In this document: positions 9,291 through 61,311 of the stretch, piece after piece
Layout of the letters: every line of letters begins with the position of its first letter
Numbering within the stretch: the stretch's first letter is position 1
Origin: a virus
Virus record (IMG/VR): IMGVR_UViG_3300023440_000001
Span: 32,001 to 96,000 of that record
Reading direction: 5' to 3' (one strand)
DNA length: 64,000 bases
Notes under the pieces: model-generated
Database searches by the model: none
What the model was told of the DNA's origin: nothing
The model's input: only the letters and a program-made list of their open reading frames with translations
Program-made: the position numbers and the translations under genes

Positions 9291-9506
9291 CTAAAAGTCT
9301 CTCAGTAGAAGATCTTCCGGATCGGCACTGGTTGCCCAGTCCACTCTCACCTGCGTCTCCAGCCAGTAGATACGGCCGCAACGATGGCAGGTCTCGGCTC
9401 CGTCCGACAGCACTTCCAGCAGTTCTCCACAGAGACAGCGGACGTTGACCTTCTGATTGTTCCATTCGAATTCCCACATATCGGAATAATACTCTTCACC
9501 CATCAT
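9291..9506 (-). CDS. Small Zn-ribbon protein
   Basis: CLC...CHRC. Confidence 0.6.
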   Translation of the reverse strand: MMGEEYYSDMWEFEWNNQKVNVRCLCGELLEVLSDGAETCHRCGRIYWLETQVRVDWATSADPEDLLLRDF

Positions 9507-10627
9507 TTACCCTTTCTAATGTTGATAATACTTCGATTGAAATACCGGTTGGCCATGGATGGCTCACGCATGGTATTTTCATGAAGCTGATTACGCTTCT
9601 CCTGAAACTCTTCCGTTTGTGGTATAATGATATCCAGATTAAACTTGGTGGCTTCATGTAGGCTCTGTTGACGCTCTAACATCAATCTTAACGGAATGGC
9701 ATGTGGATTGACGCTATTGTTTTCAGCTGATTCGGTTGATGGAGTATGCAATGCCCAGTGAGTGGCATAGTTGATTACTTCCGTGGCCGCCTGAATACAA
9801 TCGATTGCCTGGTTACCGGACTGGGTAACCTCACCTTCCATTAGACCGCTCAGATCCGGATCGTCAAACTCCTCTCCGCCATCCCATTTGAATACGTTGC
9901 CCTTCTGTACCCATTCAAACATGCGTCTGGCTTTCTTCTCCAGTTTGCGGCGTATCCGCTTTACCACCCGACCGGCAATGGGAACCTTTTCCAGCTTGGT
10001 CTTCTTAATCAGGCCGGCCATAAACTGATAGACAAACCCCAGCAACATTCGCCACAGTATCTTCAGCAGACTGAAACGGGTTACTCGCTGTCGATCCTCT
10101 ATTATGGATTCCAGTGTTCGGGTTTCAGCCGGTAACTGCATGTCCATCAGGTTCAGTTCGGCTACGTCACGGCAGCTCATATCATCCGGAAATCGCACGT
10201 CTGGCACACGGTAACCATCCGGACCGGGCTCGGTAAAGAGCAATTGTGATGGCTCAAACCCATACTGAGCCAGAAAGGCATTGTTCATGATGCGCACCGC
10301 CCGATCGAATACTTCATATGTAATACTGTTTGTATCATCATTTCCCAAACGTCGTACGGCTTCAGCCAGTCGGGGACGTTCTGCAGCGTCTACCGGTATG
10401 GAAAGTGCTTCGAGTTGCCGGTCAATCTCTTCCCGCAATTCCCGGAGTTCCTGATCCGCCTGAAGCGCATCGTCGAGCAGCTGCTGATAGGTCTGCTTTT
10501 GTTGCCGCTCTTCTTCGGTGGGTTCATCCTCCAGGCGTACTTCAATCTTCGGGTCGCCCATTACCCTTGGTCGTTCATACTCAATTTCGGGTCGATAGTC
10601 CAGTATTCCAGTCTTCTTGCGTGCCAT
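9503..10627 (-). CDS. Hypothetical protein
   Basis: 374-aa ORF with GAGG RBS, preceded by TGACATAYCTA motif. Confidence 0.7.
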   Translation of the reverse strand: MARKKTGILDYRPEIEYERPRVMGDPKIEVRLEDEPTEEERQQKQTYQQLLDDALQADQELRELREEIDRQLEALSIPVDAAERPRLAEAVRRLGNDDTNSITYEVFDRAVRIMNNAFLAQYGFEPSQLLFTEPGPDGYRVPDVRFPDDMSCRDVAELNLMDMQLPAETRTLESIIEDRQRVTRFSLLKILWRMLLGFVYQFMAGLIKKTKLEKVPIAGRVVKRIRRKLEKKARRMFEWVQKGNVFKWDGGEEFDDPDLSGLMEGEVTQSGNQAIDCIQAATEVINYATHWALHTPSTESAENNSVNPHAIPLRLMLERQQSLHEATKFNLDIIIPQTEEFQEKRNQLHENTMREPSMANRYFNRSIINIRKGK

Positions 10628-10700
10628 TCGTCACCTCATTTTATCAGTGAGCCGGCTCTTAGTAAATGACTCAGAGCGGCTCACTATAGATATGTCACAC

Positions 10701-20861: not shown

Positions 20862-21719
20862 TTATGGTTTAAGTATGACAAATCGCCCACGATGCTGTTG
20901 ATTGTCTGCTCTTACCTGATAGAAGTAAGTCCCCGCCGGTAGACTACGCATATCCAGTTGCCGAATATGTCGCCCGGGGCCCAGCCTGCCGTATTCCCGG
21001 TGAAGAACTTCCCGACCCAACACATCATAAACTGATAATGCCACGTTGACTGCTTCCGGTATGGATAGCAGCACTGTGCCAATGGAAGTTACCGGATTGG
21101 GGTAGATAGCAATCATAAATCCCTTCGGTGGCGCCGGTGGTGTATTATCAACGACTGTCGGCGCTTCGATATTAAAGCGAACATGAGTGCTGTCCCACAA
21201 ACCCATCGTATCTGTTACAATCATCACAAACCCAGCCGGACCATAGTAATCCCCCGGATCCGGCTCCACATATAACACTCCCACCGAATCATATACCCGC
21301 ACATGATCCAAATCCTTATATAATAACACCAGCTGACCAATCGTATTATCCGGATCATACAGTATTGAATCCAGGACGGCTGAATACACCTGACCAAAGG
21401 GCAGGGTGGTTATGCTCAGCTGAACATCCGGAACACCAGCTGACACCGTATCAGAGGGGTCCGACTCATTGCCGGCACTATCCACAGCCGTCAGATAATA
21501 CACATAGAGATTCCCCGGCTGCACATCTTTATCCACCGCATGTGTATCCGGATGGGCAATCGTCTGATAGTGTGAAAACACCATCTCATTAACCGCCCGA
21601 TACAATCGATAGGAGTGCATATCCGGCTCCTTATTAGGACTCCAGTAGATGTTCAGTGAATCGGTCTGCGCATAGCCCAGAGACAGTCCGATCAGCAGCA
21701 TCATAATCCAGCGCATCAT
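20862..21719 (-). CDS. Secreted Fn3-domain protein with T9SS type-A/FlgD-like C-terminal domain
   Basis: Signal peptide MMRWIMMLLIGLSLGYAQ; Fn3 YYLTAVDSAGNESDPS; CTD IYPNP...VYDVLGREV...LPAGTYFYQV; GGAGG RBS before 21719. Confidence 0.85.
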   Translation of the reverse strand: MMRWIMMLLIGLSLGYAQTDSLNIYWSPNKEPDMHSYRLYRAVNEMVFSHYQTIAHPDTHAVDKDVQPGNLYVYYLTAVDSAGNESDPSDTVSAGVPDVQLSITTLPFGQVYSAVLDSILYDPDNTIGQLVLLYKDLDHVRVYDSVGVLYVEPDPGDYYGPAGFVMIVTDTMGLWDSTHVRFNIEAPTVVDNTPPAPPKGFMIAIYPNPVTSIGTVLLSIPEAVNVALSVYDVLGREVLHREYGRLGPGRHIRQLDMRSLPAGTYFYQVRADNQQHRGRFVILKP

Positions 21720-22021
21720 GTAACCTCCTGTTTTCTCTAGATATGTCACAGATGCGCCTATATAGGGACCCAAATTCACTTCTCTCATATTTCAGACAAC
21801 GCAATGGCAAACGAATCCCGGCTCCCGAAAACGTGCCCCCCGGGTCTTACCATCGAACTTTGCGAACTACTGAATACAGCTGAAGTAGAGGAGTGGTAAG
21901 GACTTACGCCATCGAACTTGTGGAGCAGGTTCGGTAATACTCCCCTGGTATTAACTCTGTAAGGTATTCACACCAACCCACTGGTACTGATATCCCCGGG
22001 TATTGACTCTGTATCCTATTC

Positions 22022-22324: not shown

Positions 22325-23278
22325 ATGGCACGATTAAGTGAGTTAGTTAGTAGCAGATCATTAAAAGCCCTGCAAAAGATGCAGGGTAAAATCCAAGAGG
22401 GGCGTCATCTCTCCGAGCTGGAGAGACATGGCTCCTACTGGAGAACAACAAAGGGCCGCAAAGAGGCAGAAGACGCGGCCTGGAAGTACTGGAGCCAGGA
22501 CCCGCTCCTAACAACGGATTGGGTCATGCGCAAGCATGACAAGCTGCAAGAACGCCGTGGTAGAAAGCGGTCTGAATGGGTCCAGCTTGCTCAGGCTGAA
22601 CCGCAGCTGAGGCAGGCTGAATCTCAGCTGGATCAGGCCGCTGAGCGCCTGGAGGAGTCCAAATCGGATCCAGTCTATCGCCATCGCCGGCCTCGTCATC
22701 GACGCTGGAAACAGCTCTACGCAGAGCTGTTGAAAGCCCAGGCCAAGTATAACGAGACCTGGCAGCGATACATGGATGCTCTAGAGAGAATGGAACGTCT
22801 GGAGCAATCCATAAGAGACATAGACCGCAACGCTGACAAGTTGCAGCGTAGGGTTAGTAAGCTGCAGCATAAGCTTGCGGTAATATTCGCCTGGGCCAGC
22901 TCTGAAGCGGTTGCCCAACGCAATAGGGCCACTTCTAAAGCAGCCGTTAAGACTGCTAGGGCTGCCACCAAGGCTGCAAAAGCTTCCACTAAGCCTACTC
23001 CTACTACTACTACTACTACTACTACTGCCCCTGCTGTTACTCAGGAAGCTGTGGCAGTGAAGAAACAGTCTTTTAAGTTACCGAAGTTTGAGACTGCTGG
23101 GATTGTTTCCAGGAAAGTCTCTTCGGTAATCAAGAAACGCATTATTTGGGTACTCGACGGTTTAAGAGTGCTCAAATATCGCAATAAAGACAACAAGAAA
23201 GTCATGGAACTGCTCGCAACATATACTTACAGCTCCATGGCTGAGGCTCGCCGAGCACTCAGTGTAGCTATGGCCTAG
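22325..23278 (+). CDS. First plus-strand gene: coiled coil + Thr-run linker
   Basis: 317 aa, AGGAGG RBS, (ACT)8 at ~23003-23026. Confidence 0.75.
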   Translation: MARLSELVSSRSLKALQKMQGKIQEGRHLSELERHGSYWRTTKGRKEAEDAAWKYWSQDPLLTTDWVMRKHDKLQERRGRKRSEWVQLAQAEPQLRQAESQLDQAAERLEESKSDPVYRHRRPRHRRWKQLYAELLKAQAKYNETWQRYMDALERMERLEQSIRDIDRNADKLQRRVSKLQHKLAVIFAWASSEAVAQRNRATSKAAVKTARAATKAAKASTKPTPTTTTTTTTAPAVTQEAVAVKKQSFKLPKFETAGIVSRKVSSVIKKRIIWVLDGLRVLKYRNKDNKKVMELLATYTYSSMAEARRALSVAMA

Positions 23279-23376
23279 CAGAGATGAGCAAACAACTAAA
23301 CAACGCCTTGCCCATGGGACGTGACCCCATGAACAAGGCAAAACCACAAACACAAACATCCAGAAAGGAGGATATC

Positions 23377-26067
23377 ATGGCTAATTTAAGTCATGCAATC
23401 CGCGTAGGCAACAAGGAATATACGTTGCCTCGCGCTGGTCTCCGTCTTCAGCTGACCATCCGTGAACTGGAAGACGGTCAGTTGGAGATTACGGAGCAAC
23501 ACGTCCCGACGCGGCCCTATCTGGACCACGTTCTGGGAGAGGACTACATTGTAGTTACCTCGAACAGTAAGGTCTGGTTCCAGCGAGCCGTTGTTGGGAT
23601 GGAACCCACCATTGCCGGGTGGAGTGTGGCCGCCGGTTATTTCAAGACCGGCTGGGTTACGCTCTTCCTGACGCCTGGTAGGAAAGAGTTTCTCTGGGCT
23701 CGGGATAAACTCGGCTTACTGGTCGAGGGTAACCTGGATAAGGCGTTCAAGTACGTCAAACGGTTATATGCGCCTTATCAGGCTCACACCTTCGTACCAG
23801 TGAGCGATGTCAAGTATCGTATCATTGAGTACGATGGTGACCTCGGCCGTGTACTGGAGGGTGCTGTTCTTATTCGCCATTCTGCTGCCAACAAATGGTT
23901 TGGCGGCAACATCAAGGTAGGTGAAATCCTGAAGTTCACCGCCTTGACAGTTGAAGGGATGGTGAAGGGTCACGCCCTCGTCTTACCAGATTCCCGTTTG
24001 AGCTACGACTTCGTGTCGTATGAAATCAAACGGGAAGTACGATCAACATCCGGTGAGATGTTTGTCGGTATGATTGGTCGTGCTATTGGCCACGATTGGG
24101 CTAGGACTGATATTCAGTCCTTGACCAATTTCGAGTTGGCCAGTTTCTTCCATGAAGAAACCAGGGCCTTCTTGGATGAGGTCGAGACCCACATCATGGA
24201 TCCAGAGTGGCTGCGTGAAAAGCTGGCGGTTTATGCCACTCTGGATGACGATCCTGATGCTGGTCAGACTGCAATGAAGCTTGTACAGGCTTTAAAGCAG
24301 TTTGACAATCCTCTAGAGTTTCCGTTCATGAAACGGTCCATCATCAATACATTCCTGAAGATGATGACTGATCCTGGACGGGGACGAGTCATCACCCATA
24401 AAGCCATAAAACGCTATCTCTTCCCGGATATGACCGCCTTTAATCATAAAGGCGAGTTCATGGGAGAAGGTAGCGGCGTGCTTGGCCATGCCAGCGTATT
24501 CGCCGGAAGCAATGTGGAAGGCGATGTGGTATTTCATCGCCAACCCAATGCGGAAGGCGAGTACTATCCGGCTGTGGCCATAGTCAGCGAAAAGCTGGCT
24601 GAACTTGAGGGTCACGCACTGTTTTACAGTGTGGCTGACCTGAAAGAGGCGGCCTATATGCTGGAAGTGCTGGGTGGTGGTGATAATGATGATGGTGTCA
24701 TCGTCTGGTATGACCCGGATGTTGTGGAGCACTTTCTGGATCTGCCCATGGTGGATCCGGATAAGCGCTTTGGTAATCCGGAGAAGAAGGATGTGGTTGA
24801 GATCCCAATAGGTCTTACACCGCAGAACTTCTTCCGCCTTGTCAACGAGAAGATTGGTATGCGCGACTTCATTGGTAAAGTCGTGAATGCCATGTTTATC
24901 GGCAAGGCCCCTGTGTCTGGACCAAGCATTTGGTTTGGTGCCAACCAGGAAAGTCTCATTGATACCAACGTAAAGATGGGACAGCTGGATGGTACCGAAC
25001 ATCCGCTAGTGGCTCTGGCAAATGAGCAGGATGAGACGATCAAGGTCGTTGCTGCTCATACTAGAGGTCGTTGGTCCAAACGGCTCCGGGAGCGTGTTGA
25101 GGCCGGTGAGGTTCAAGTGATCGAAACTGAACTCACCAAAGCTCTCAACTATGCCTGGGAACGGGTGAGTGCGATTGAAAAAGAGATCAATCGCAGCACT
25201 CTATATCCTCAGGTGCCAATGGATGTCTTGCGTGTGCCTGAAGATAAAGTAGCAGCTGGTGCTGCAAAGGATATCCGGGTGCTCTGGGGTAAGTTCTGGG
25301 CTGAACATCGTCCAGAAGACGATGAACAGTTCCGAGAACTGTATCGCCAGGCGAGCGAGCTCGTGGTACTAGAACTTGCTCAGTACAGCTACAGCACACA
25401 GATCTATATTGTGGCTGAGTTGTACAAATGGGTGTATTTCACCCGCGAGCTCAATACCGAAGTTCTAACAAAGATCGCCGCCGGTGAGGCTAGTTACCCG
25501 GACGGCGTCTTGTGGACCTCAGATGTGGAAGAGATGCGTGGAACAGCCACCTTGCTGTTCGACCTCTTCCGCATGTTAGGCACGGGCTTCATCTGGCGGA
25601 AGGTCTCTAACCTGAAGCCGGATTATCGGAAAGGTGAGTTTGAAGTCATCGTTGCCCGCAATGAGGTCAAACTGGCATCCGGCCGTGTCATCGGATTTGT
25701 GAAAGCACCGAATGGTCGCTTTACGATGAAACACGGCTGGATTGCCGTGCCACAGACATTCTACACTGTGCCTGAGTCTACAAAGGCTGTGACCATCGTC
25801 AACGGGTGGTCGTCGGCTATTAAAGCAGGCCAGGCATCTGAAGATGATGTCGAGGCATGGAAGGCAGCCAACGCAGACAAAGTCGCTGAGCTGGTCTACA
25901 CAACTTACAACAATAAGCCTGCCGTCGAAGTTCGAGTTGATGGCGAGCTTATCGGGTATGTGGCCATCAGCGGCGTTAATACTCTGCGCATGGCAGGCAA
26001 TCCAACCCAGGTTAAAATCACCCGGCAGGGATCTTCTCAGATGACCCTGCTGGGTCTGATTCAGTAA
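23377..26067 (+). CDS. Candidate single-subunit two-barrel RNA polymerase (YonO/RdRP-like)
   Basis: EGAVLI and VKGH (first barrel), HRQP and LGGGDNDDGVIVWYD (second barrel, cf. GGDxDGDxxxVxWD); start behind AAGGAGG. Confidence 0.6.
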   Translation: MANLSHAIRVGNKEYTLPRAGLRLQLTIRELEDGQLEITEQHVPTRPYLDHVLGEDYIVVTSNSKVWFQRAVVGMEPTIAGWSVAAGYFKTGWVTLFLTPGRKEFLWARDKLGLLVEGNLDKAFKYVKRLYAPYQAHTFVPVSDVKYRIIEYDGDLGRVLEGAVLIRHSAANKWFGGNIKVGEILKFTALTVEGMVKGHALVLPDSRLSYDFVSYEIKREVRSTSGEMFVGMIGRAIGHDWARTDIQSLTNFELASFFHEETRAFLDEVETHIMDPEWLREKLAVYATLDDDPDAGQTAMKLVQALKQFDNPLEFPFMKRSIINTFLKMMTDPGRGRVITHKAIKRYLFPDMTAFNHKGEFMGEGSGVLGHASVFAGSNVEGDVVFHRQPNAEGEYYPAVAIVSEKLAELEGHALFYSVADLKEAAYMLEVLGGGDNDDGVIVWYDPDVVEHFLDLPMVDPDKRFGNPEKKDVVEIPIGLTPQNFFRLVNEKIGMRDFIGKVVNAMFIGKAPVSGPSIWFGANQESLIDTNVKMGQLDGTEHPLVALANEQDETIKVVAAHTRGRWSKRLRERVEAGEVQVIETELTKALNYAWERVSAIEKEINRSTLYPQVPMDVLRVPEDKVAAGAAKDIRVLWGKFWAEHRPEDDEQFRELYRQASELVVLELAQYSYSTQIYIVAELYKWVYFTRELNTEVLTKIAAGEASYPDGVLWTSDVEEMRGTATLLFDLFRMLGTGFIWRKVSNLKPDYRKGEFEVIVARNEVKLASGRVIGFVKAPNGRFTMKHGWIAVPQTFYTVPESTKAVTIVNGWSSAIKAGQASEDDVEAWKAANADKVAELVYTTYNNKPAVEVRVDGELIGYVAISGVNTLRMAGNPTQVKITRQGSSQMTLLGLIQ

Positions 26068-26147
26068 TAAACTAACCAAGAACATTGAGAAGACCCCGAT
26101 AGCCATTCAGGTTGTCGGAGTTTTCTGTTAGAAAAGAGGTAAAGACA

Positions 26148-27203
26148 ATGTTAGAAGCCCTCAAATCCTGGTGGGTCATCGTCCAGAACACAGGAAAGTG
26201 CTTTGGATGTGCCTACTGTATCATTTCACAACGAAAGGATTTAGGTGGGATGTATGCAGAGGTGGCTATCGGTGACTTGCCATCGAAGTATCTGGGTGAT
26301 CGTGGACGTGACATCCCCGTGGTTATTGATAACTACTTCGGGGATCCGTCCACACAACAGGATCACCTGAGACAGGCCCTGATGGCCTTAAAAGAAGACG
26401 GCCATCGTGGACCTATTGGCATCATCACAAAAGGGAAGTTCGGCCGACAGACGATTGATCTGTTGGCCAGCATTCCCAATGTGGTGGTGCTGCAGTCCAT
26501 ATCGGGACTGCCTAGAAGCATAGAACCCGCAAAACTGGAGACGCGTGTCGAGAATATGCGTCGTCTGGTGGAGGCAGGGATTAAGACTATCGCTTACCTG
26601 CGACCAATTATCGCAGGGTATAATGATAGCCCAGAATCCCTGCAACGGGTTCTGAATCTAATTAAGCTCACCGGAGTCGATACCGTTGTGTACTCCGGCT
26701 TCCGGATAACAGAAGAGACCCGGAAACTGATGGAAGCCAACGGTATTGACATGTCTGGTTTCAAGGAAGATCCGGAACACAAACAGATGCCGGAAGAGGC
26801 TCGTGAATTCATCGAGACTTACGGACACTCAATCGGATTGAAGGTGTTCCGGAAGACTTCCTGCGGGGTTAGCTATCTGTTGGGCACGTCAGACTATAAT
26901 GCCCACTGGAGTAATCCCACAAAGTACGAGTGCCAGAACTGCCCAAATCTCGGCAAATGTTTGCCGAAGTTAAAGTCAGTGGCAGTCCGGGAATCCGTAT
27001 GCAAACCCAAATGTCCACACCAATGTTCCAGTTGCCCATTCTTGAAGGACAACCAGGTACATCTGACTGGTAAATGGACCCTGGGTGAGTTATCAGTAGC
27101 CCGGTGGATACTTGGTCAGCAGGTAACGGCTGGGGAGATTATTAACACGCCGGGTATACTGAATGTTGAAAAGCTCCGCAACTTAAAGAAGGAGGTGAAA
27201 TAA
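26148..27203 (+). CDS. Radical SAM protein (SPL-like), atypical Cx2Cx2C, Cys-rich C-terminus
   Basis: CFGCAYC, ITKG, IEP...R, LRPIIAGYND; C-terminal Cys clusters. Confidence 0.75.
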   Translation: MLEALKSWWVIVQNTGKCFGCAYCIISQRKDLGGMYAEVAIGDLPSKYLGDRGRDIPVVIDNYFGDPSTQQDHLRQALMALKEDGHRGPIGIITKGKFGRQTIDLLASIPNVVVLQSISGLPRSIEPAKLETRVENMRRLVEAGIKTIAYLRPIIAGYNDSPESLQRVLNLIKLTGVDTVVYSGFRITEETRKLMEANGIDMSGFKEDPEHKQMPEEAREFIETYGHSIGLKVFRKTSCGVSYLLGTSDYNAHWSNPTKYECQNCPNLGKCLPKLKSVAVRESVCKPKCPHQCSSCPFLKDNQVHLTGKWTLGELSVARWILGQQVTAGEIINTPGILNVEKLRNLKKEVK

Positions 27204-28141
27204 TGAAGACCTTCTTTAAGCCCAGTGGAGCTGCATGTCCACAAGGCTGTGCGTATTGCATTGTGGACATGAATCCCAACCGCCGGAAGGAGTATCTGGA
27301 GTCAGTTCTGTACTTCATGAACTCCTTCGTGGCGATAAACATCATGCCTGAACGGAGGGACCAACATCTTGAAGAGATTCGAAACCTCGATTGGTCCCTC
27401 TTTTCGGGTGACTATCTGGGATTCCAGGGTGCATCAGAACCATTAATGTACAAACGTACCCTGTTTGATATCCTGGGCAAGGCCAGGCAATTCGGCTTCA
27501 AGGTAGCGATTTGTTCCAAGCTATCCATCGGCCGAAGATTGGCAAAAGAGCTGGCCGAGTTTCGGGATGTCTTGGACATTGAGATTTCATATGCCAAGCT
27601 CTCGGAACTGGAAAGGTCGGACGCCAAACGCCTGGCATCGATAGGAAATGCCCTGGAAGCTGGTTTCGACGTGCTGACAGTCATTCAGCCGTTTATATAC
27701 GGTTTGACGGATGTCAGACTCGAAGAGCTGATCCGGGAGCTGAAGAGCGTGGGAGCCACCTACGTCTCTGTGAATGGCTTCCGATATTCCAAGGCAATGG
27801 AATGGTGGGCCAGGCAGGTACTTCCACATCACATACTCCAGATGTATAGGGAGAATGAGGGTGTGGAATACCTGCCTGATCGGGGTCAGATAGAAGCCCG
27901 ACTAACAGCGGCCGGGTTCAAGGTAACCAAGATCTCTAAATGGTTACGAAGGAATGAATCCGGACGCTACAAGGACCCTGCCGAGGTGATTTCGAATATG
28001 AAACGTCTGGTTGGATTTAAAAGTCAAATAGACCCTTCTAATCCTGATTGGAGGGTCTGCGATAACGAACATCTTCGCGTAGCAAGCGATAGCAATAGTG
28101 AGATGCTTGCAAAGATGTTCGAAAGGAGAATGAACTTCTAA
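27203..28141 (+). CDS. Radical SAM protein (SPL-like)
   Basis: CPQGCAYC, SEP, IQPFIYGLTD. Confidence 0.8.
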   Translation: MKTFFKPSGAACPQGCAYCIVDMNPNRRKEYLESVLYFMNSFVAINIMPERRDQHLEEIRNLDWSLFSGDYLGFQGASEPLMYKRTLFDILGKARQFGFKVAICSKLSIGRRLAKELAEFRDVLDIEISYAKLSELERSDAKRLASIGNALEAGFDVLTVIQPFIYGLTDVRLEELIRELKSVGATYVSVNGFRYSKAMEWWARQVLPHHILQMYRENEGVEYLPDRGQIEARLTAAGFKVTKISKWLRRNESGRYKDPAEVISNMKRLVGFKSQIDPSNPDWRVCDNEHLRVASDSNSEMLAKMFERRMNF

Positions 28142-28988: not shown

Positions 28989-29193
28989 GCTAATGAGGCC
29001 TCCTCTCTGGGGGTCCGGGCAGAGTTTCCTCCTCCTTTTGCTCACCCGGGCTCCCAGTGAGTAGGTTCGCCCATCCGACTTACACCGCTATTCATAGGTG
29101 ACTGCCCCTAGGTTGGGGTCAGTCGGCAATGGGCACTGTGGCACCACGCCGGGCATGTCGCCGAAGTGGTGTCCAGCCATGGAGGAGTATACC

Positions 29194-29520
29194 ATGGCTA
29201 TCTATAATATGGAATTGAGTCAAACTTCAATGTCCGCCCCGAACGGTGGACCTGTATTCTTATTAAAGGTCGGGTTCGGCGACCCGGCAACCAACGCCGA
29301 GATCGTTCCGTTCGTCGCCGAAAACGCTCCCGACGCAAACGGCGCAGTACTGTTAATTAACGGGCCCGCCAGCCTTCCGGTGGCAATGGCGCTGGCTCAC
29401 AAATACGCTCATGTATTCGGGGCCGTGGCGGCCTTCGACCCGAAGTTATCCGGGTACGTAGTCGCCATTAGCCACGATCCCGAGTTACCGGTCGGCAAAG
29501 TGCTGAAGTTCGATATGTAA
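29194..29520 (+). CDS. csx3: Csx3/Crn3-family CRISPR ring nuclease
   Basis: LKVGFGDPA...INGPASLPVAMALAHKYAHVFGAVAAFDPKL...YVVAISHDP; His-x8-Asp spacing; GGAGGAG RBS. Confidence 0.8.
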   Translation: MAIYNMELSQTSMSAPNGGPVFLLKVGFGDPATNAEIVPFVAENAPDANGAVLLINGPASLPVAMALAHKYAHVFGAVAAFDPKLSGYVVAISHDPELPVGKVLKFDM

Positions 29521-30082: not shown

Positions 30083-30514
30083 GTGATGAAACGCATTGAA
30101 ATCAATGGAATGTCTCCGACACAGATAATGGAACGCTATGGCGTTCACCGCGGAACGGCTTATCGTGCCGTAAAGCGCGGGTATCTGTGCCTGGATTATC
30201 ATAAACGGCAGATTGTGATCGATCCGGCACGCGCCGAGGAGAACCTCGACCTGATTCAGATGGTCGTGGAGCAAACCCTCTGGCGTAAGTTCGGGTGGAT
30301 CCGCAATAAAGCCGACGCCCGCAGCGAAGCCATTCTCGGCCTGCTGGAGCTGACGGGTCATCCAGACTTTGGCAATAAGAACTGGATGATCACGGTTGTC
30401 CAGAATCGGCTGCGGGATTTCGCCAAGAAAGAACGTAATTACCTGCGCCGAGCCAGCAGCCTCGACGCAATGCCCAATTATGAGGCACTGCTGGTAGTGG
30501 CGCCTGAACTATAA
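30083..30514 (+). CDS. N-terminal HTH + sigma70 region-2-like protein
   Basis: SPTQIMERYGVHRGTAYRA HTH; ENLDLIQMVV...DARSEAILGLLE...WMITVVQNRLRDF...SLDA. Confidence 0.55.
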   Translation: MMKRIEINGMSPTQIMERYGVHRGTAYRAVKRGYLCLDYHKRQIVIDPARAEENLDLIQMVVEQTLWRKFGWIRNKADARSEAILGLLELTGHPDFGNKNWMITVVQNRLRDFAKKERNYLRRASSLDAMPNYEALLVVAPEL

Positions 30515-34477: not shown

Positions 34478-34535
34478 GCTAACGGGGGTCGCCGTATGGC
34501 CCCCATTTATTAACACATAACAAGTGAGGTACGCT

Positions 34536-34961
34536 ATGGCAAGCTTTAATCAAGTCATCTTAGTGGGTCGGCTTGGCACCGATGCCGAAATCCGTGAAGT
34601 CGGCAAGTCCACCGTGGCCAAAGTCCGTCTGGCGACTAACTATCGCTACAAAGACAAAGACGGCAACTGGACCGATGGCACCGACTGGCACACTGTTAAT
34701 ATCTGGAATCCCAGTGAAGCCCTTCAGAAATACCTGAAGAAAGGGGCCCAGATCATGGTCACCGGCGAGTTGCGCGAACGCAGCTACGACGACAAAGACG
34801 GTAATCGCCGCTACGTGACCGAAGTGTCAGTCACCGCCCGGAATGTCGTCCTGTTGGGAAGCGGAAACGGCAAAGGCAAAACCGATATCGCCGAACCCGA
34901 TGAAGTGGAAGAACCCGTCGATTCGTCCGTCGAAGACGATGATGACGGCGTTCCGTTTTAA
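34536..34961 (+). CDS. ssb: Single-stranded DNA-binding protein
   Basis: NQVILVGRLG, TDWH, acidic tail DDDDGVPF. Confidence 0.95.
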   Translation: MASFNQVILVGRLGTDAEIREVGKSTVAKVRLATNYRYKDKDGNWTDGTDWHTVNIWNPSEALQKYLKKGAQIMVTGELRERSYDDKDGNRRYVTEVSVTARNVVLLGSGNGKGKTDIAEPDEVEEPVDSSVEDDDDGVPF

Positions 34962-43948: not shown

Positions 43949-45067
43949 ATGTTAAAGGTTCAAGAGTTCTTGAGTGAAAACAGTCTGGATGACTTAAAGG
44001 AACGTTATGCGATCAAGATTAAACGTCATCCCTACTTCCAGAATCTGGTTCACTTTTCTTATGATATGCTGAATTCGCCCCTGGGTGAACCCATTGTTCA
44101 GGAATGTCGTGGTCTGATTCTTGATCAGGATGATAACTGGAAGGTAGTGGCATTTCCATATAGGAAGTTCTTCAATTATGGTGAACCACATGCCGCTCAG
44201 ATTGACTGGAACAGTGCCCAGGTATTTGAGAAACTGGATGGTACGCTGATCATACTGTATAAGTACGATGGTGTATGGCATGTGGCAACCACTGGCACAC
44301 CTGACGCAGGTACCAATGTAAACGGATTTGGCTTCAGCTTTAGTGATCTGTTCTGGAGAGTATGGGATGGGTATCGATACCCGCTTCCGGAAGGAATGGA
44401 TGATTATACGTTCATGTTTGAGTTGATGACACCCTATAATCAGGTTGTAGTTCGTCAAAATGGAAATCGTATTGTTCTACATGGAATGCGAAATAACCAT
44501 ACCCTGGAAGAAGAGAATCCCCGTCTGGCAGCGGCACTATTCAGATATGAATGTGTTCGCTCGTTCGACTTCCATTCCATAGATGAAGTTGTTGCCGCTG
44601 CGGAAGAACTGGACTTTCAGAAGCAGGAAGGCTTTGTGATAGTCGATGCCTATTATAATCGCTTGAAGGTGAAGAACCCCAAGTATGTCTTCTATCATCA
44701 CATCAAGTCCAGTTTCTCTATAAAGAAGGCTGTGGACATTATCCGTAAGGGTGAGTCAGCGGAGTTCATTTCCTACTTTCCGGAGCTGGCGGAAATGGTG
44801 CATCGAATTGAGCAACGCTATGATGAACTAGTTCATCGAGCTAACGGCCTTTATGAGCTCTATAAAGACATTGAATCCGACAAAGAGTTTGCCCGGTATG
44901 CTCTACAACATGATGTTGCTCACGTTCTGTTTGCACTTCGACATGGTAAGGCGCGCTCCCCTCAAGAGTTCTTAAAACACGTTCATATGGATGCTATTAT
45001 GCGCCTTCTTCAGGTCCAGGACCTCGAAAGTCAACTGCTTAATTTAAACACGGAGGATCTATCTTGA
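43949..45067 (+). CDS. rnlA: T4 Rnl1-like RNA ligase
   Basis: ECRGLI, KFFN, EKLDG, FEL, EGFV, KVK. Confidence 0.92.
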   Translation: MLKVQEFLSENSLDDLKERYAIKIKRHPYFQNLVHFSYDMLNSPLGEPIVQECRGLILDQDDNWKVVAFPYRKFFNYGEPHAAQIDWNSAQVFEKLDGTLIILYKYDGVWHVATTGTPDAGTNVNGFGFSFSDLFWRVWDGYRYPLPEGMDDYTFMFELMTPYNQVVVRQNGNRIVLHGMRNNHTLEEENPRLAAALFRYECVRSFDFHSIDEVVAAAEELDFQKQEGFVIVDAYYNRLKVKNPKYVFYHHIKSSFSIKKAVDIIRKGESAEFISYFPELAEMVHRIEQRYDELVHRANGLYELYKDIESDKEFARYALQHDVAHVLFALRHGKARSPQEFLKHVHMDAIMRLLQVQDLESQLLNLNTEDLS

Positions 45068-45939
45068 ATCTGTCCAAAGTCATTCTCATGCTAAAAGGTT
45101 TACCAGCATCTGGTAAATCTACCTGGGCTAAAGAGCAAATAGATGAGCATCCCGGTCGATTCAAACGGGTCAACAAAGATGATCTGCGGGCAATGCTGGA
45201 TAACTCCCGCTGGTCAAGGGCTAATGAGAAGTTCGTTCTGAAGGTGCGCGACTTTATCGTCTCTCAGGCGTTGGAAGATGGATATTCGGTTATTGTTGAC
45301 GATACCAATCTCCATCCCAGACATGAGATCCGCCTGAAGGAGATTGCTCGTGAAAAGAAGGCTGATTTCGAAGTCAAGGAGTTTACGGATGTTCCTATTG
45401 AAGAGTGTATCAAGCGAGATCTGAAACGTCCTAACTCGGTTGGTCCGGATGTCATTCGACAAATGGCTCGACAGTTCAACTTGTTACAAAAGCGACCGGT
45501 ACCGGAGCATATCCCGGATCTTCCTACGGCAATAATCTGTGATCTGGACGGAACACTGGCTCTACTAAATGGTCGCAATCCTTATGACGCTTCTGACTGT
45601 GTGAACGACCTGTTAAACAGGCCAGTGGCTCAGCTGCTTAAAACCATTTGCAGAAGCCGTCCGGAAGTAAAGATCCTTCTGGTTTCAGGTCGTGAACAGA
45701 AGTATATGCATCAGACCTGGGACTGGTTAGAAAAGCATGATATTCCCTATGATTACTTGTTCATGCGTTGTACGGGTGATACTCGTAAGGACGCGATCAT
45801 TAAACGAGAGATCTATGATTACTATATACGGAATCAGTTTAATGTCTGGTTTGTACTGGATGATCGCCGTCAAGTAGTTGAGATGTGGCGCGACGAACTG
45901 GGTCTCCCGGTCTTTCAGGTAGACTGGGGTGAGTTCTAA
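45064..45939 (+). CDS. pseT: Polynucleotide 5'-kinase/3'-phosphatase
   Basis: GLPASGKST kinase + DLDGT HAD phosphatase, DDR. Confidence 0.93.
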   Translation: MNLSKVILMLKGLPASGKSTWAKEQIDEHPGRFKRVNKDDLRAMLDNSRWSRANEKFVLKVRDFIVSQALEDGYSVIVDDTNLHPRHEIRLKEIAREKKADFEVKEFTDVPIEECIKRDLKRPNSVGPDVIRQMARQFNLLQKRPVPEHIPDLPTAIICDLDGTLALLNGRNPYDASDCVNDLLNRPVAQLLKTICRSRPEVKILLVSGREQKYMHQTWDWLEKHDIPYDYLFMRCTGDTRKDAIIKREIYDYYIRNQFNVWFVLDDRRQVVEMWRDELGLPVFQVDWGEF

Positions 45940-56151: not shown

Positions 56152-56491
56152 TTTATTAAGGAGAGGATTATGCACTGCGTAGAATGTAACTCCAATAAGT
56201 TACAACGGGAGATGTTTGAAAAGACCGGTACCTGTCCATTATGTAACGGTCACCGCCACATCAGTTTCCATCGCTACGTCCAGTGGAAACTGGGTTTTGT
56301 ACTATGGCTTAATGATGATGGAAATCATGCACCGGTGGAAACTATGAAGCAACGCTGCGAAGACATGATTCTCAGGTGTTATAGAGAGTATCACAAAAAC
56401 CGACTCCCGATTATCAAACCCTATCCACTTGATCACGGGAGTCCGGTAGACGTAGTAGCATATTACATTGATCAGTTTAAGGAATAGAGCA

Positions 56492-57679
56492 ATGAATATA
56501 AGCAACTATGTTGACTGTATGATACTCCGTGTTATTGCTGGCTCCCATGCGTACGATATGGCCACGGAACATTCCGATCTGGATGTAAAGGGTATCTTGA
56601 TACCGCCGTATGAATATCTGCTGGGTATCTACACGTTTGAACAGACCGAAGGTGATATGAAAGACGACCCCCTGGAGCAGATCGGTCTGGATCCAACACT
56701 ACTTCGTAACGGTGGTGAGTTTACTTACTATTCTCTTCAGAAGTACTTTAAGCTGGCTCGGGATTGTAATCCTTCGATTCTGGAACTCCTGTTTTCAGAT
56801 CCAAAGCATTATATATGGGATGGAATTACACCTGAGAACAGGCGGTTGGGTGAGCTGCTGATTCGTAATCGTCGTCTGTTTCTATCTCAGAAGGTACGCT
56901 TTACTTATACCGGCTATGCACACGCCCAGCTGAAACGCATTAAAGGTCACAATAAATGGTTGACCAATCCACAGCCCGAAGAGAAGCCCCGACCGGTAAA
57001 CTTCATGAAGTTCTATCCCCTCAATATACATGAACAGCCAGCACTGTTTTATACCGCTCACATTGCCCTGGAAGATGATCCGGATTTTGAGAAGTGGATA
57101 TTGAAGTATGGTTTACAATCAATGGGTGCTAAACCAATTCCCGGCACCGACAACAAAGCCTTCTTTCTGTACCAGAAGGGCAGGGGAATAGTCGATTCCT
57201 CAGGCGCTCTGTTATCTGACTATTCCTATAACTACGATCCGGATAGCCCTGTCATTGGTATCCTGGTCTTCCAGCGAGACGAGTATCGCTCTCAGCTGAA
57301 GAAGTGGAAGGAATACTGGGATTGGGTACGTAATCGTAACCCGGCCAGAAGTGAGCTTGAGAAGAAGTATGGCTACGATACTAAGCACGCTGCCCATCTT
57401 ATCCGGCTATTGCGCACCGGTTACGAGCTAATGAGTACCGGCGAACTCCATGTTCTACGCCCGGATGCCGAAGAGCTTCTGGCTATCCGCAACGGTGCCT
57501 GGAGTTACAAGCAGCTGATTGATCATGCCGAAGAGACGGAGCAGAAGATCATCGAATTATATGACAGCCCATACTGTCCGCTTCCGATGAAGCCGGACAT
57601 CAAGAAGATTAACCAGCTCTATTTGGAGATGATAGAGCCGATAATCAGCAGGAGATTGAGCAATGAAGGTTCTTATTAG
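56492..57679 (+). CDS. Pol-beta-superfamily nucleotidyltransferase (YcgL/RlaP-like)
   Basis: GSHAY...SDLDVKG, NPSILELL, YDTKHAAHLIRLL. Confidence 0.88.
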   Translation: MNISNYVDCMILRVIAGSHAYDMATEHSDLDVKGILIPPYEYLLGIYTFEQTEGDMKDDPLEQIGLDPTLLRNGGEFTYYSLQKYFKLARDCNPSILELLFSDPKHYIWDGITPENRRLGELLIRNRRLFLSQKVRFTYTGYAHAQLKRIKGHNKWLTNPQPEEKPRPVNFMKFYPLNIHEQPALFYTAHIALEDDPDFEKWILKYGLQSMGAKPIPGTDNKAFFLYQKGRGIVDSSGALLSDYSYNYDPDSPVIGILVFQRDEYRSQLKKWKEYWDWVRNRNPARSELEKKYGYDTKHAAHLIRLLRTGYELMSTGELHVLRPDAEELLAIRNGAWSYKQLIDHAEETEQKIIELYDSPYCPLPMKPDIKKINQLYLEMIEPIISRRLSNEGSY

Positions 57680-61023: not shown

Positions 61024-61119
61024 ACTCCCAGTCTACACTGCCACTTTCTATTCACTCCCTGTGACATATCTATTCATGCTATATTCTCCATCGTATGTAA
61101 ACAATGGAGGAAGCGTTCT

Positions 61120-61311
61120 ATGGTTTATACAGTTAAGTGTGCCAGCTGTGGTAAGACGTCTGATGTCTTCGTTCATACCTATGATGCTAGACTGACCTGT
61201 CCGAACTGTGGTAGCGAGTCTGTTACCAGGCAATTCGGTCAGCCGGGTCTAATATTCAAAGGCGAAGGCTTCTATGTAACGGATTACAAACGGAAGGGTA
61301 AAGAACGGTGA
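61120..61311 (+). CDS. FmdB-family Zn ribbon
   Basis: CASC...CPNCG, FKGEGFYVTDY. Confidence 0.85.
   Translation: MVYTVKCASCGKTSDVFVHTYDARLTCPNCGSESVTRQFGQPGLIFKGEGFYVTDYKRKGKER

Follow-up and report, generated by a model that had tools for sequence, protein, structure and literature searches.

A phage-encoded two-barrel RNA polymerase homologue with a contracted DxDD loop and a probable HIRAN-like domain

Characterized single-chain two-barrel RNA polymerases (RNAPs) of phages are few (YonO, crAss gp66, Thermus gp64 and gp96), and such enzymes bear on the origin of the cellular RNA polymerase core and of the eukaryotic RNA interference (RNAi) polymerases. YonO of the SPbeta prophage is described as a DNA-dependent RNAP whose Asp triad is essential and which transcribes late structural and lysis genes. 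Thermus gp64 is made early and has promoters of its own, from which it transcribes genes of the phage, while gp66 of crAss phage phi14:2 is, in a preprint on that enzyme, the basis for proposing a phage origin of the RNAi polymerases. The DxDxD signature, carried by gp64 and present as DFDGD in gp96, has been treated as universal, and new enzymes have been sought by it. Here we describe P0001, a protein of 896 amino acids (aa) encoded on the plus strand at positions 23377-26067 of a 64,000-nucleotide (nt) stretch of viral DNA (the window). The window is part (bases 32001-96000) of a viral contig of 136,294 bases whose completeness was rated at ~72% (IMG/VR record IMGVR_UViG_3300023440_000001). 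Sequencing runs found to contain this DNA carry the label microbial mat metagenome, and there was no RNA run among those listed. An earlier note made from the sequence alone, the original prediction, had proposed P0001 as a candidate RNAP of the RNA-dependent RNA polymerase (RdRP)/YonO type with a noncanonical catalytic loop.

Fold, catalytic motifs and family of P0001

Translation of the P0001 gene gives a frame of 896 codons with no internal stop. An ATG further upstream, at 23284, is in the same open frame and would yield a 927-aa alternative; the ATG at 23377 is the likely start, because AAGGAGG lies 5 nt upstream and the gene caller, too, arrived at the identical 896-aa protein (P0002 of the protein collection). 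The intact frame and start of the original prediction were thereby upheld. The gene and the features discussed below are as follows.

23377..26067 (stop codon included), plus strand: P0001 gene, read as a single-chain two-barrel RNA polymerase of 896 aa (translation, model, fold matches)
23365..23371, plus strand: Shine-Dalgarno AAGGAGG, 5 nt ahead of ATG 23377 (sequence read)
23782..24081, plus strand: predicted first beta-barrel (beta/Rpb2-like), residues ~136-235, with E161-G162 (the 'DG') and K197-G198-H199 (model strands; boundaries approximate, drawn from secondary structure)
24385..24771, plus strand: predicted second beta-barrel (beta-prime/Rpb1-like), residues ~337-465 (VIA alignment to E. 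coli beta-prime 344-495, Z ~6)
24538..24549, plus strand: R388-Q-P390-N, R-x-P motif in the catalytic barrel (75/75 rows; aligns with KNP of RDR2 and RSP of YonO)
24673..24693, plus strand: G433-G-G-D436-N-D438-D439, the shortened DxDD metal-binding loop (family alignment, RDR2 and YonO alignments)
24871..24963, plus strand: conserved helical segment from I499-G500-x-x-V-N504 to D529, after the barrel (family conservation)
25774..26064, plus strand: probable HIRAN-like domain, residues ~800-896 (domain model, fold comparison, Pfam matches of relatives)

A model of P0001, computed with AlphaFold2 on a 59-row family alignment, had a mean predicted local distance difference test score (pLDDT) of 86.5 and a predicted template-modeling score of 0.82. 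Foldseek returned 26 matches in the PDB at E <= 1e-3, and every one among the matches listed was a two-barrel RNAP. These included QDE-1 (866 columns, E 2.4e-14), RDR2 of maize and of Arabidopsis (E 2.9e-11 to 1.8e-9), P74 gp62 and P32 gp64 (E ~2e-6; gp62 1.4e-6) and gp96 (E 9e-4); crAss gp66 and many beta-prime chains ranked just below the 1e-3 line. Structural alignment with VIA-align placed maize RDR2 at Z 21.4 (root-mean-square deviation 6.1, 610 residues aligned, model residues 4-735), QDE-1 (2j7n) at 19.2, gp64 at 14.9, gp62 at 14.6, gp96 at 11.2 and crAss gp66 at 7.7. Beta-prime chains followed at Z ~6, model residues 337-465 lying on residues 344-495 of the E. coli subunit, its catalytic barrel. 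In a library of viral structures, the top matches were uncharacterized proteins of uncultured Caudovirales (E 3.7e-18, template-modeling score 0.56), and two entries automatically named 'RNA dependent RNA polymerase' and P23-45 gp64 were also recovered. On its predicted fold, P0001 belongs to the two-barrel superfamily with two double-psi beta-barrels, the beta-like barrel first. The original prediction had named this comparison among its checks, and a model lacking double-psi barrels among the outcomes that would speak against it; that outcome did not arise.

The clade to which P0001 belongs also holds QDE-1, RDR2, YonO and gp64/gp62. RDR2 of plants (7w82, 7roz, 7eu0) and QDE-1 of Neurospora/Thielavia (2j7n, 5fsw, 7y7p-t), RdRPs of eukaryotic RNA silencing, are the best structural matches, over ~600-650 residues at Z 21.4 to 18, and share with P0001 the motif order DG...S, KG, R/K-x-P, GGD-x-D...D at an identity of ~11-13%. 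P0001 differs from them in being phage-encoded, in its probable C-terminal HIRAN-like domain and in having DxDD where they have DLDGD/DYDGD. YonO (839 aa) resembles P0001 in carrying both barrels on a single chain and in having its gene at a genomic junction of divergent orientation, whereas its loop is DNDGD; we know of no HIRAN-like domain in YonO. The Thermus-phage enzymes gp64 of P23-45/P32 and gp62 of P74-26 (8f72, 8f5m for the two) and gp96 (8h2m) are likewise phage single-chain two-barrel RNAPs, smaller (~590 aa) and less similar to P0001 than RDR2/QDE-1 are; gp64/gp62 are non-virion enzymes, while gp96 is a virion RNAP fused to the tape measure. crAss gp66 (6vr4), which is QDE-1-like, also has two barrels in one chain, with a far weaker likeness to P0001; it is packaged in the virion, is 2,180 aa long and has DFDID, in contrast to P0001, whose gene lies in the early/replication arm away from the virion genes. 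From multisubunit RNAPs (beta-prime/beta, Rpb1/Rpb2), with which it shares an alignable catalytic barrel, P0001 differs in being a single chain without clamp, flap or other modules and without a match to the Rpb1_2/Rpb2_6 domains.

The sequence landmarks of P0001 lie where the original prediction had placed them: EGAVLI at residues 161-166 (23857-23874), KGH at 197-199 (23965-23973), RQPN at 388-391 (RQP from 24538) and GGGDNDD at 433-439 (24673-24693), the last followed by GVIVWYD, with the predicted 48 residues between R388 and D436. We compared these with the eight residues that a 2010 review gives as invariant in every two-barrel RNAP, namely the three Asp, R446/P448 of Rpb1 and D837/K979/K987 of Rpb2. 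R388 and P390 match the invariant R-x-P and are in register with both RDR2 and YonO. We take RQP to be the literal Rpb1 motif. In the first barrel, the lysine of KG (K197, 83/83 covering rows) and the acidic residue at position 161 (D or E in 72/80 rows) are plausible sequence equivalents of the Rpb2 invariant residues, and the 'DG...S' stretch aligns to 'DGIGKIS' of RDR2 and 'TDGCGMM' of YonO. Downstream of the catalytic barrel, G500 (71/71), N504 (68/70) and D529 (68/70) are conserved in the covering rows, and the VIA alignments to beta-prime extend to model residue ~590; segment 499-529 may correspond to a bridge helix.

To survey the metal loop, 87 sequences (P0001, P0003 and 85 further representatives) were aligned to the family hidden Markov model (HMM) and the raw residues were read. 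The loop was covered in 75 sequences, the other 12 being fragments or unaligned there. DxDD was present in 74 of the 75; the one remaining sequence, P0072, has DLDGD in the same GGAD...SV context. An Asp follows the third Asp in 1/75 only, and therefore no DxDxD is hidden one step along. In the HMMER alignment to RDR2 and in the hhalign alignment to YonO alike, the second Asp is separated from the third by a gap of one residue. Taken together, these results indicate that the family loop is DxDGD minus the glycine, and from the alignments the contracted DxDD loop is a fixed trait of the family, in keeping with the shortening that the original prediction had noted in the single protein. D436, D438, D439, R388 and P390 were each present in 75/75 covering rows, and Q247 in 82/82.

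The family itself was assembled by a HMMER search of 1.84 billion representatives of 50% identity clusters, which returned 86 proteins at E <= 1e-3, 33 at <= 1e-10 and 4 at <= 1e-30. The relatives are mostly 850-1,100 aa long and match best over residues ~150-480; ten that were looked up were all metagenomic and unnamed or 'hypothetical protein'. When 59 of the 86 were aligned, columns were on average 13% identical, with K125, R129, K197, Q247, R388 and P390 invariant and G162, G198, D211, K218, D245, N251, G434, D436, D438, D439, G500, N504, D529 and D709 near-invariant. The three Asp were present in 48/48 relatives scanned, and 7 of these 48 matched Pfam RdRP (PF05183) at E <= 0.1 (best 1.5e-10). 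One of the seven, P0006, which is among the closest relatives of P0001, has a GADFDD loop and an RdRP match of 19.8 bits (cut-off 23.8) spanning positions 161-503 of the 582 in the PF05183 profile. The top PDB matches of the family profile were RDR2 chains (E 0.0055 and 0.022), with 'hRqPNahrgE' set on 'TKNPCLHPGD', 'lGGgDqD.D' on 'CSGGDLDgD' and 'DGmnlis' on 'DGIGKIS'. hhalign related the family alignment (A1) to YonO from the SPbeta record with a probability of 84.5% (E 7e-6, 285 columns), the R-x-P being in register and the Asp loop one residue shorter than the DNDGD of YonO. This is moderate sequence evidence for homology to YonO with the catalytic motifs in register and, with the fold matches to RDR2/QDE-1, it bears out the RdRP/YonO-type reading of the original prediction. 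An ESM Atlas feature search gave 21 of 30 matches in phage clusters, with PF05183 in 39-46% of members.

Other searches reached little of this. A word-index protein search with P0001 found the protein itself and one relative, phmmer against PDB sequences gave matches at chance level (e.g. carboxypeptidase B2, E 0.11), and tblastn with P0001, P0019, P0031 and P0023 found no match in 50,697 phage records, SPbeta included, for any of the four queries. Related-locus searches of viral contigs found none with P0001 or P0004 and three loci with subgroup alignment A2; there were none in prokaryote genome contigs (A2) or metagenome contigs (A5), and neither the A2 profile nor P0006 had a relevant match among PDB sequences. 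Among the papers listed in our literature searches, none links DxDD to double-psi RNA polymerases, and this family is described in none of the titles and abstracts; Supplementary Data 3 of PMC10770324, in which 23 families of two-barrel RNAPs are aligned, may include it. In titles and abstracts, we found no description of a phage RdRP-like enzyme with HIRAN.

From the alignments and the fold, the active site of P0001 would be formed by two double-psi beta-barrels in one chain, with E161 and K197 contributed by the first barrel and R388/P390 and the Mg-binding Asp436, Asp438 and Asp439 by the second. The three carboxylates would probably still serve as metal ligands, in a tighter turn.

A probable C-terminal HIRAN-like domain

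Residues ~800-896 of P0001 probably form a HIRAN-like end-binding domain, judging from the models. The HIRAN fold of HLTF and Rad5 grips 3' DNA ends. HIRAN structures aligned at Z 6-7 to residues 796-896 of the whole-protein model. A separate model of the domain, computed on 16 aligned rows, reached a pLDDT of 86.9 and, when compared with 48,161 chains without Foldseek, gave Z >= 5 only for lp_0118 (7.8; which we take to be HIRAN-like), the HIRAN domain of HLTF (6.0) and region 179-284 of Rad5 (5.3), the next match being at 4.2; a Z below 8 can mean a shared arrangement only.

Pfam HIRAN (PF08797) had no match in P0001 itself, and was matched at the extreme C-termini of 2 of 48 relatives (P0051 at 28.1 bits, above the cut-off, and P0067 at 22.1 bits). 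The C-terminal module could be aligned in 33 of the 65 relatives of at least 750 aa. Together, the DxDD loop and the HIRAN-like fusion set P0001 apart from every characterized two-barrel enzyme.

Genomic setting, promoter-like motifs and other transcription genes

The source phage is a large myovirus. Leftward genes, which include those for tail sheath, an intein-bearing large terminase and head protease, reach ~21790, rightward genes begin at 22325, and the P0001 gene is the second of the rightward block. The plus strand also encodes a family A DNA polymerase with a uracil-DNA glycosylase-like domain, ribonucleotide reductase, a RecD-like helicase, a RecA-like protein, SSB (34524-34961), an Rnl1-type ligase, PNKP and RlaP. 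The last three make up an RNA-end toolkit at 43949-45939 and 56468-57679 (plus strand), comprising the Rnl1-type RNA ligase, polynucleotide kinase-phosphatase and RlaP nucleotidyltransferase. Within the 536-nt strand-switch region, two copies of GGTATTRACTCTGTA at 21940-22015 lie upstream of the polymerase operon and may be early promoters or operators.

Scanning the contig for k-mers revealed three recurring intergenic elements. One is a conserved leader, CAAAACACAGGAGGTA, which ends in a ribosome-binding site and is common to eight or nine plus-strand genes. Another, a palindrome followed by a ATTCACTCCC box, is by its sequence and placement a second promoter/operator-like class, distinct from the third element, TGACATA[AT]CTA (11 nt), a candidate phage promoter. 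The last occurs in 12 exact copies in the contig, where 0.13 would be expected and none of 100 block shuffles gave more than 1; with at most one mismatch, it occurs in 20 copies against 4.85 expected (shuffle maximum 12); the window alone holds 9 against 2.6 expected, a number reached in 0/100 shuffles. Its orientation follows transcription throughout, with 12/12 copies left of the strand switch on the minus strand and 8/8 right of it on the plus strand (20/20 co-oriented with the gene blocks), and it often lies 25-60 nt ahead of a start codon. The copies inspected had no sigma-70-type -10 element at the proper spacing downstream, and the copy at 21738 is only 9 nt from an AGGAGG, which leaves no space for a separate -10 box. 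Behind the motif lie the gene for the terminase (with one mismatch), neighbors of the protease and of the sheath region, and that for an SbcD-like exonuclease, among others. The two promoter-like motifs of the original prediction are real, and the pairing of either with P0001 is putative. Representative sites are listed here.

21738..21748, minus strand: TGACATA[AT]CTA copy, 9 nt before AGGAGG and ~18 nt before an ATG of the leftward gene
10687..10697, minus strand: exact TGACATA[AT]CTA copy, 60 nt ahead of gene 9503-10627
61062..61072, plus strand: exact TGACATA[AT]CTA copy, 58 nt ahead of gene 61120-61311
33461, 38133, 50491, 61017 and also 75872, 86487, 102064 (window numbering), ahead of plus-strand operons: palindrome GTGTAGACTG..CAGTCTACAC, then ATTCACTCCC box
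30518, 32194, 32340, 32706, 33943, 38202 and twice more outside the window, plus-strand genes: leader CAAAACACAGGAGGTA, ribosome-binding site with upstream context

We also asked what other transcription machinery the phage encodes. The multisubunit domains Rpb1_2 and Rpb2_6 were absent from the phage contig, from a complete 215-kb relative (G001) and from a further relative (G002), while controls gave a signal in 14/14 genomes. The family HMM found no paralogue of P0001 in the contig, and no other contig open reading frame (ORF) carries a DxDGD-type or GGDxDD signature. The T7-like RNAP model (PF00940) had no match, but its control was equally silent and the result is uninformative. The 'HTH-sigma2' protein of the original prediction (30083-30514) did not hold up as a sigma factor, since Pfam recognizes an N-terminal helix-turn-helix only and a whole-contig search found no Sigma70_r2 match there. 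A separate sigma-like protein of 242 aa is encoded ~5.7 kb past the right end of the window (G000:C1:101677-102405), with Sigma70_r3 at 24.4 and Sigma70_r2 at 15.6 bits, both just below the Pfam cut-offs. Immediately downstream of it lies a DnaG-type primase gene (DNAG_N 65.3, Toprim_2 60.3 bits).

In G001, no Sigma70_r2 was found, and TGACATA[AT]CTA is absent from both G001 and G002, as expected for distant relatives. G001 has a motif of its own, TATACTAATCAG, in 11 exact copies against 0.05 expected, with 13/13 sites co-oriented with gene blocks and often 2-32 nt ahead of a start. Its polymerase gene (163948-166860, plus strand) lies just past the junction with a minus-strand block of large structural-size genes. 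The same genome has many copies of GGTTCGAATCC, a tRNA T-loop signature (twelve sites such as 63674, 65537 and 66441), which probably mark a large tRNA set.

Directly after the polymerase gene, 26112-27203 and 27203-28141 (plus strand) are paired, weak radical-SAM-like genes (21 and 27 bits, below the cut-off), a pair that is not conserved beside the polymerase genes of relatives. Both this pair and the upstream coiled-coil gene were considered as polymerase partners and dropped, as the neighborhood is not conserved. Also in the early region, 29098-29520 (plus strand) encodes a stand-alone Csx3-like protein (Cas_csx3, 30.1 bits). Across the strand switch, the protein of 20862-21788 (minus strand) combines a stretch like fibronectin III with a C-terminal sorting domain of type IX secretion (Por_Secre_tail, 40.5 bits), which hints at a Bacteroidota host; ribosome-binding sites as strong as the AAGGAGG of this phage are unusual among Bacteroidota. 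The motif at 21738 suggests that the true start of this gene is the ATG near 21719. Left of the window, in the virion arm, lies an ORF of 2,707 aa (G000:C1:4730-12853, minus strand) whose sole PHROGs match is a PD-(D/E)XK/Cas4-like stretch at residues ~1787-1945; it was considered as a virion RNAP and rejected on its sequence, which neither Pfam nor the family profile matched and which lacks a signature of the DxDGD type.

The likely role of P0001

That P0001 is a divergent single-chain two-barrel RNAP of the RdRP/YonO clade is, on fold and homology, close to certain. The conservation pattern makes it very probably active. For its being the phage's own transcriptase, by analogy with its phage relatives, the balance tips only slightly in favor, and its link to one specific motif is less secure. 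Taken as a whole, we consider it likely that P0001 is a non-virion two-barrel RNAP that transcribes phage genes, perhaps from TGACATA[AT]CTA. By analogy with YonO and gp64, the enzyme, once made, would transcribe phage genes independently of the host RNAP, and the likeliest start sites would be the TGACATA[AT]CTA copies ahead of the leftward genes of the virion/packaging arm. The HIRAN-like domain may hold the template or primer end. A phage polymerase that reads a short, oriented phage promoter is the most economical account, because of the parallels with G001 and YonO.

A number of observations weigh against this account. P0001 matched no Pfam family at E <= 1, so that the PF05183 cut-off was not reached, and no PHROGs family at E <= 0.01; its sequence links to known enzymes are weak (E 0.0055) or run via relatives. 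The DxDxD triad listed as invariant in two-barrel RNAPs is not found in P0001, where the third Asp comes one position early, and only one of the two basic residues expected in the first barrel could be placed, position 186 being basic in 40/82 rows only (candidates for the other are K218, in 80/83 rows, and K125, in 77/77). A blastp comparison of all ORFs of loci L002-L004 with the phage contig found the polymerase alone in common, and hence no conserved neighborhood. On the promoter side, the genes behind TGACATA[AT]CTA are mixed and therefore do not form a clean late class, the G001 motif TATACTAATCAG contains TATACT, like a sigma-70 -10 box, and the sigma-like protein together with the host RNAP could read the promoter-like motifs. 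Finally, with the contig ~72% complete, a further polymerase may be encoded in the portion not recovered.

The strongest competitor, which we consider unlikely without dismissing it, is an end-initiating polymerase that copies single-stranded DNA or RNA from at or near the template 3' end, held by the HIRAN-like domain; its products, be they antisense RNA, double-stranded RNA or hybrids of RNA and DNA, would be used in replication, in recombination, in repairing RNA or in counter-defense, and transcription would be left to the host RNAP with the phage sigma-like factor. The best structural matches, RDR2 and QDE-1, are indeed end-initiating RNAi polymerases, QDE-1 works best on single-stranded DNA according to the crAss preprint, and the phage has an SSB gene nearby, an unusual RNA-end enzyme set and a sigma-like gene that could explain the promoter motifs. 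The C-terminal HIRAN-like fusion points the same way, but the HIRAN match is modest (Z 5.3-7.8) and, because the module can be aligned in only about half of the long relatives, it is not essential to the family. In addition, the only characterized phage relatives (YonO, gp64, gp66, gp96) are DNA-dependent transcriptases, and G001 lacks Sigma70_r2 and any multisubunit RNAP domain and yet has its 13 co-oriented promoter-like motifs.

Two further explanations appear far less probable, and to about the same degree. P0001 might be a replication primase or a DNA polymerase-like two-barrel core comparable to archaeal PolD, the DxDD loop reflecting a changed substrate or task. Two-barrel cores can be DNA polymerases, according to the PolD literature, the gene sits in the early/replication half of the genome, and the loop is unlike that of every characterized RNAP; against this, the phage has its own DnaG-type primase, so that priming is covered, as well as the family A DNA polymerase, no PolD chain is among the fold matches listed, and the closest matches are all RNA polymerases. 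The other is an inactive or non-polymerase derivative with a structural or regulatory part, in which catalysis was lost with the shortening of the metal loop. The departure from the canonical triad fits such a loss, and the loop conformation in crystallized crAss gp66 is, as reported in the crAss preprint, incompatible with Mg binding, which indicates that the geometry of this loop is delicate. However, no covering family member has lost any of the three Asp, the R-x-P or the lysine of KG despite a mean column identity of 13%, which is how selection on an active site would show.

For the superfamily, the DxDD family implies either that the metal loop tolerates a one-residue contraction or that the chemistry differs. 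The family resembles RDR2/QDE-1 far more closely than crAss gp66 does, and about half of its long members carry the probable HIRAN-like end-binding domain. A more speculative proposal, which we put forward as an outside chance, is that the DxDD family is a distinct and widespread phage lineage missed by DxDxD searches, the nearest viral kin of the eukaryotic RNAi polymerases, which, like QDE-1 and RDR2, loads at free 3' ends of single-stranded DNA or RNA rather than opening promoters. If so, it would offer a testable phage model for the proposed phage origin of the RNAi RdRPs, and the shortened loop together with HIRAN would amount to a different way of starting RNA synthesis. For the phage itself, P0001 and the short oriented motif are a candidate compact polymerase-promoter pair.

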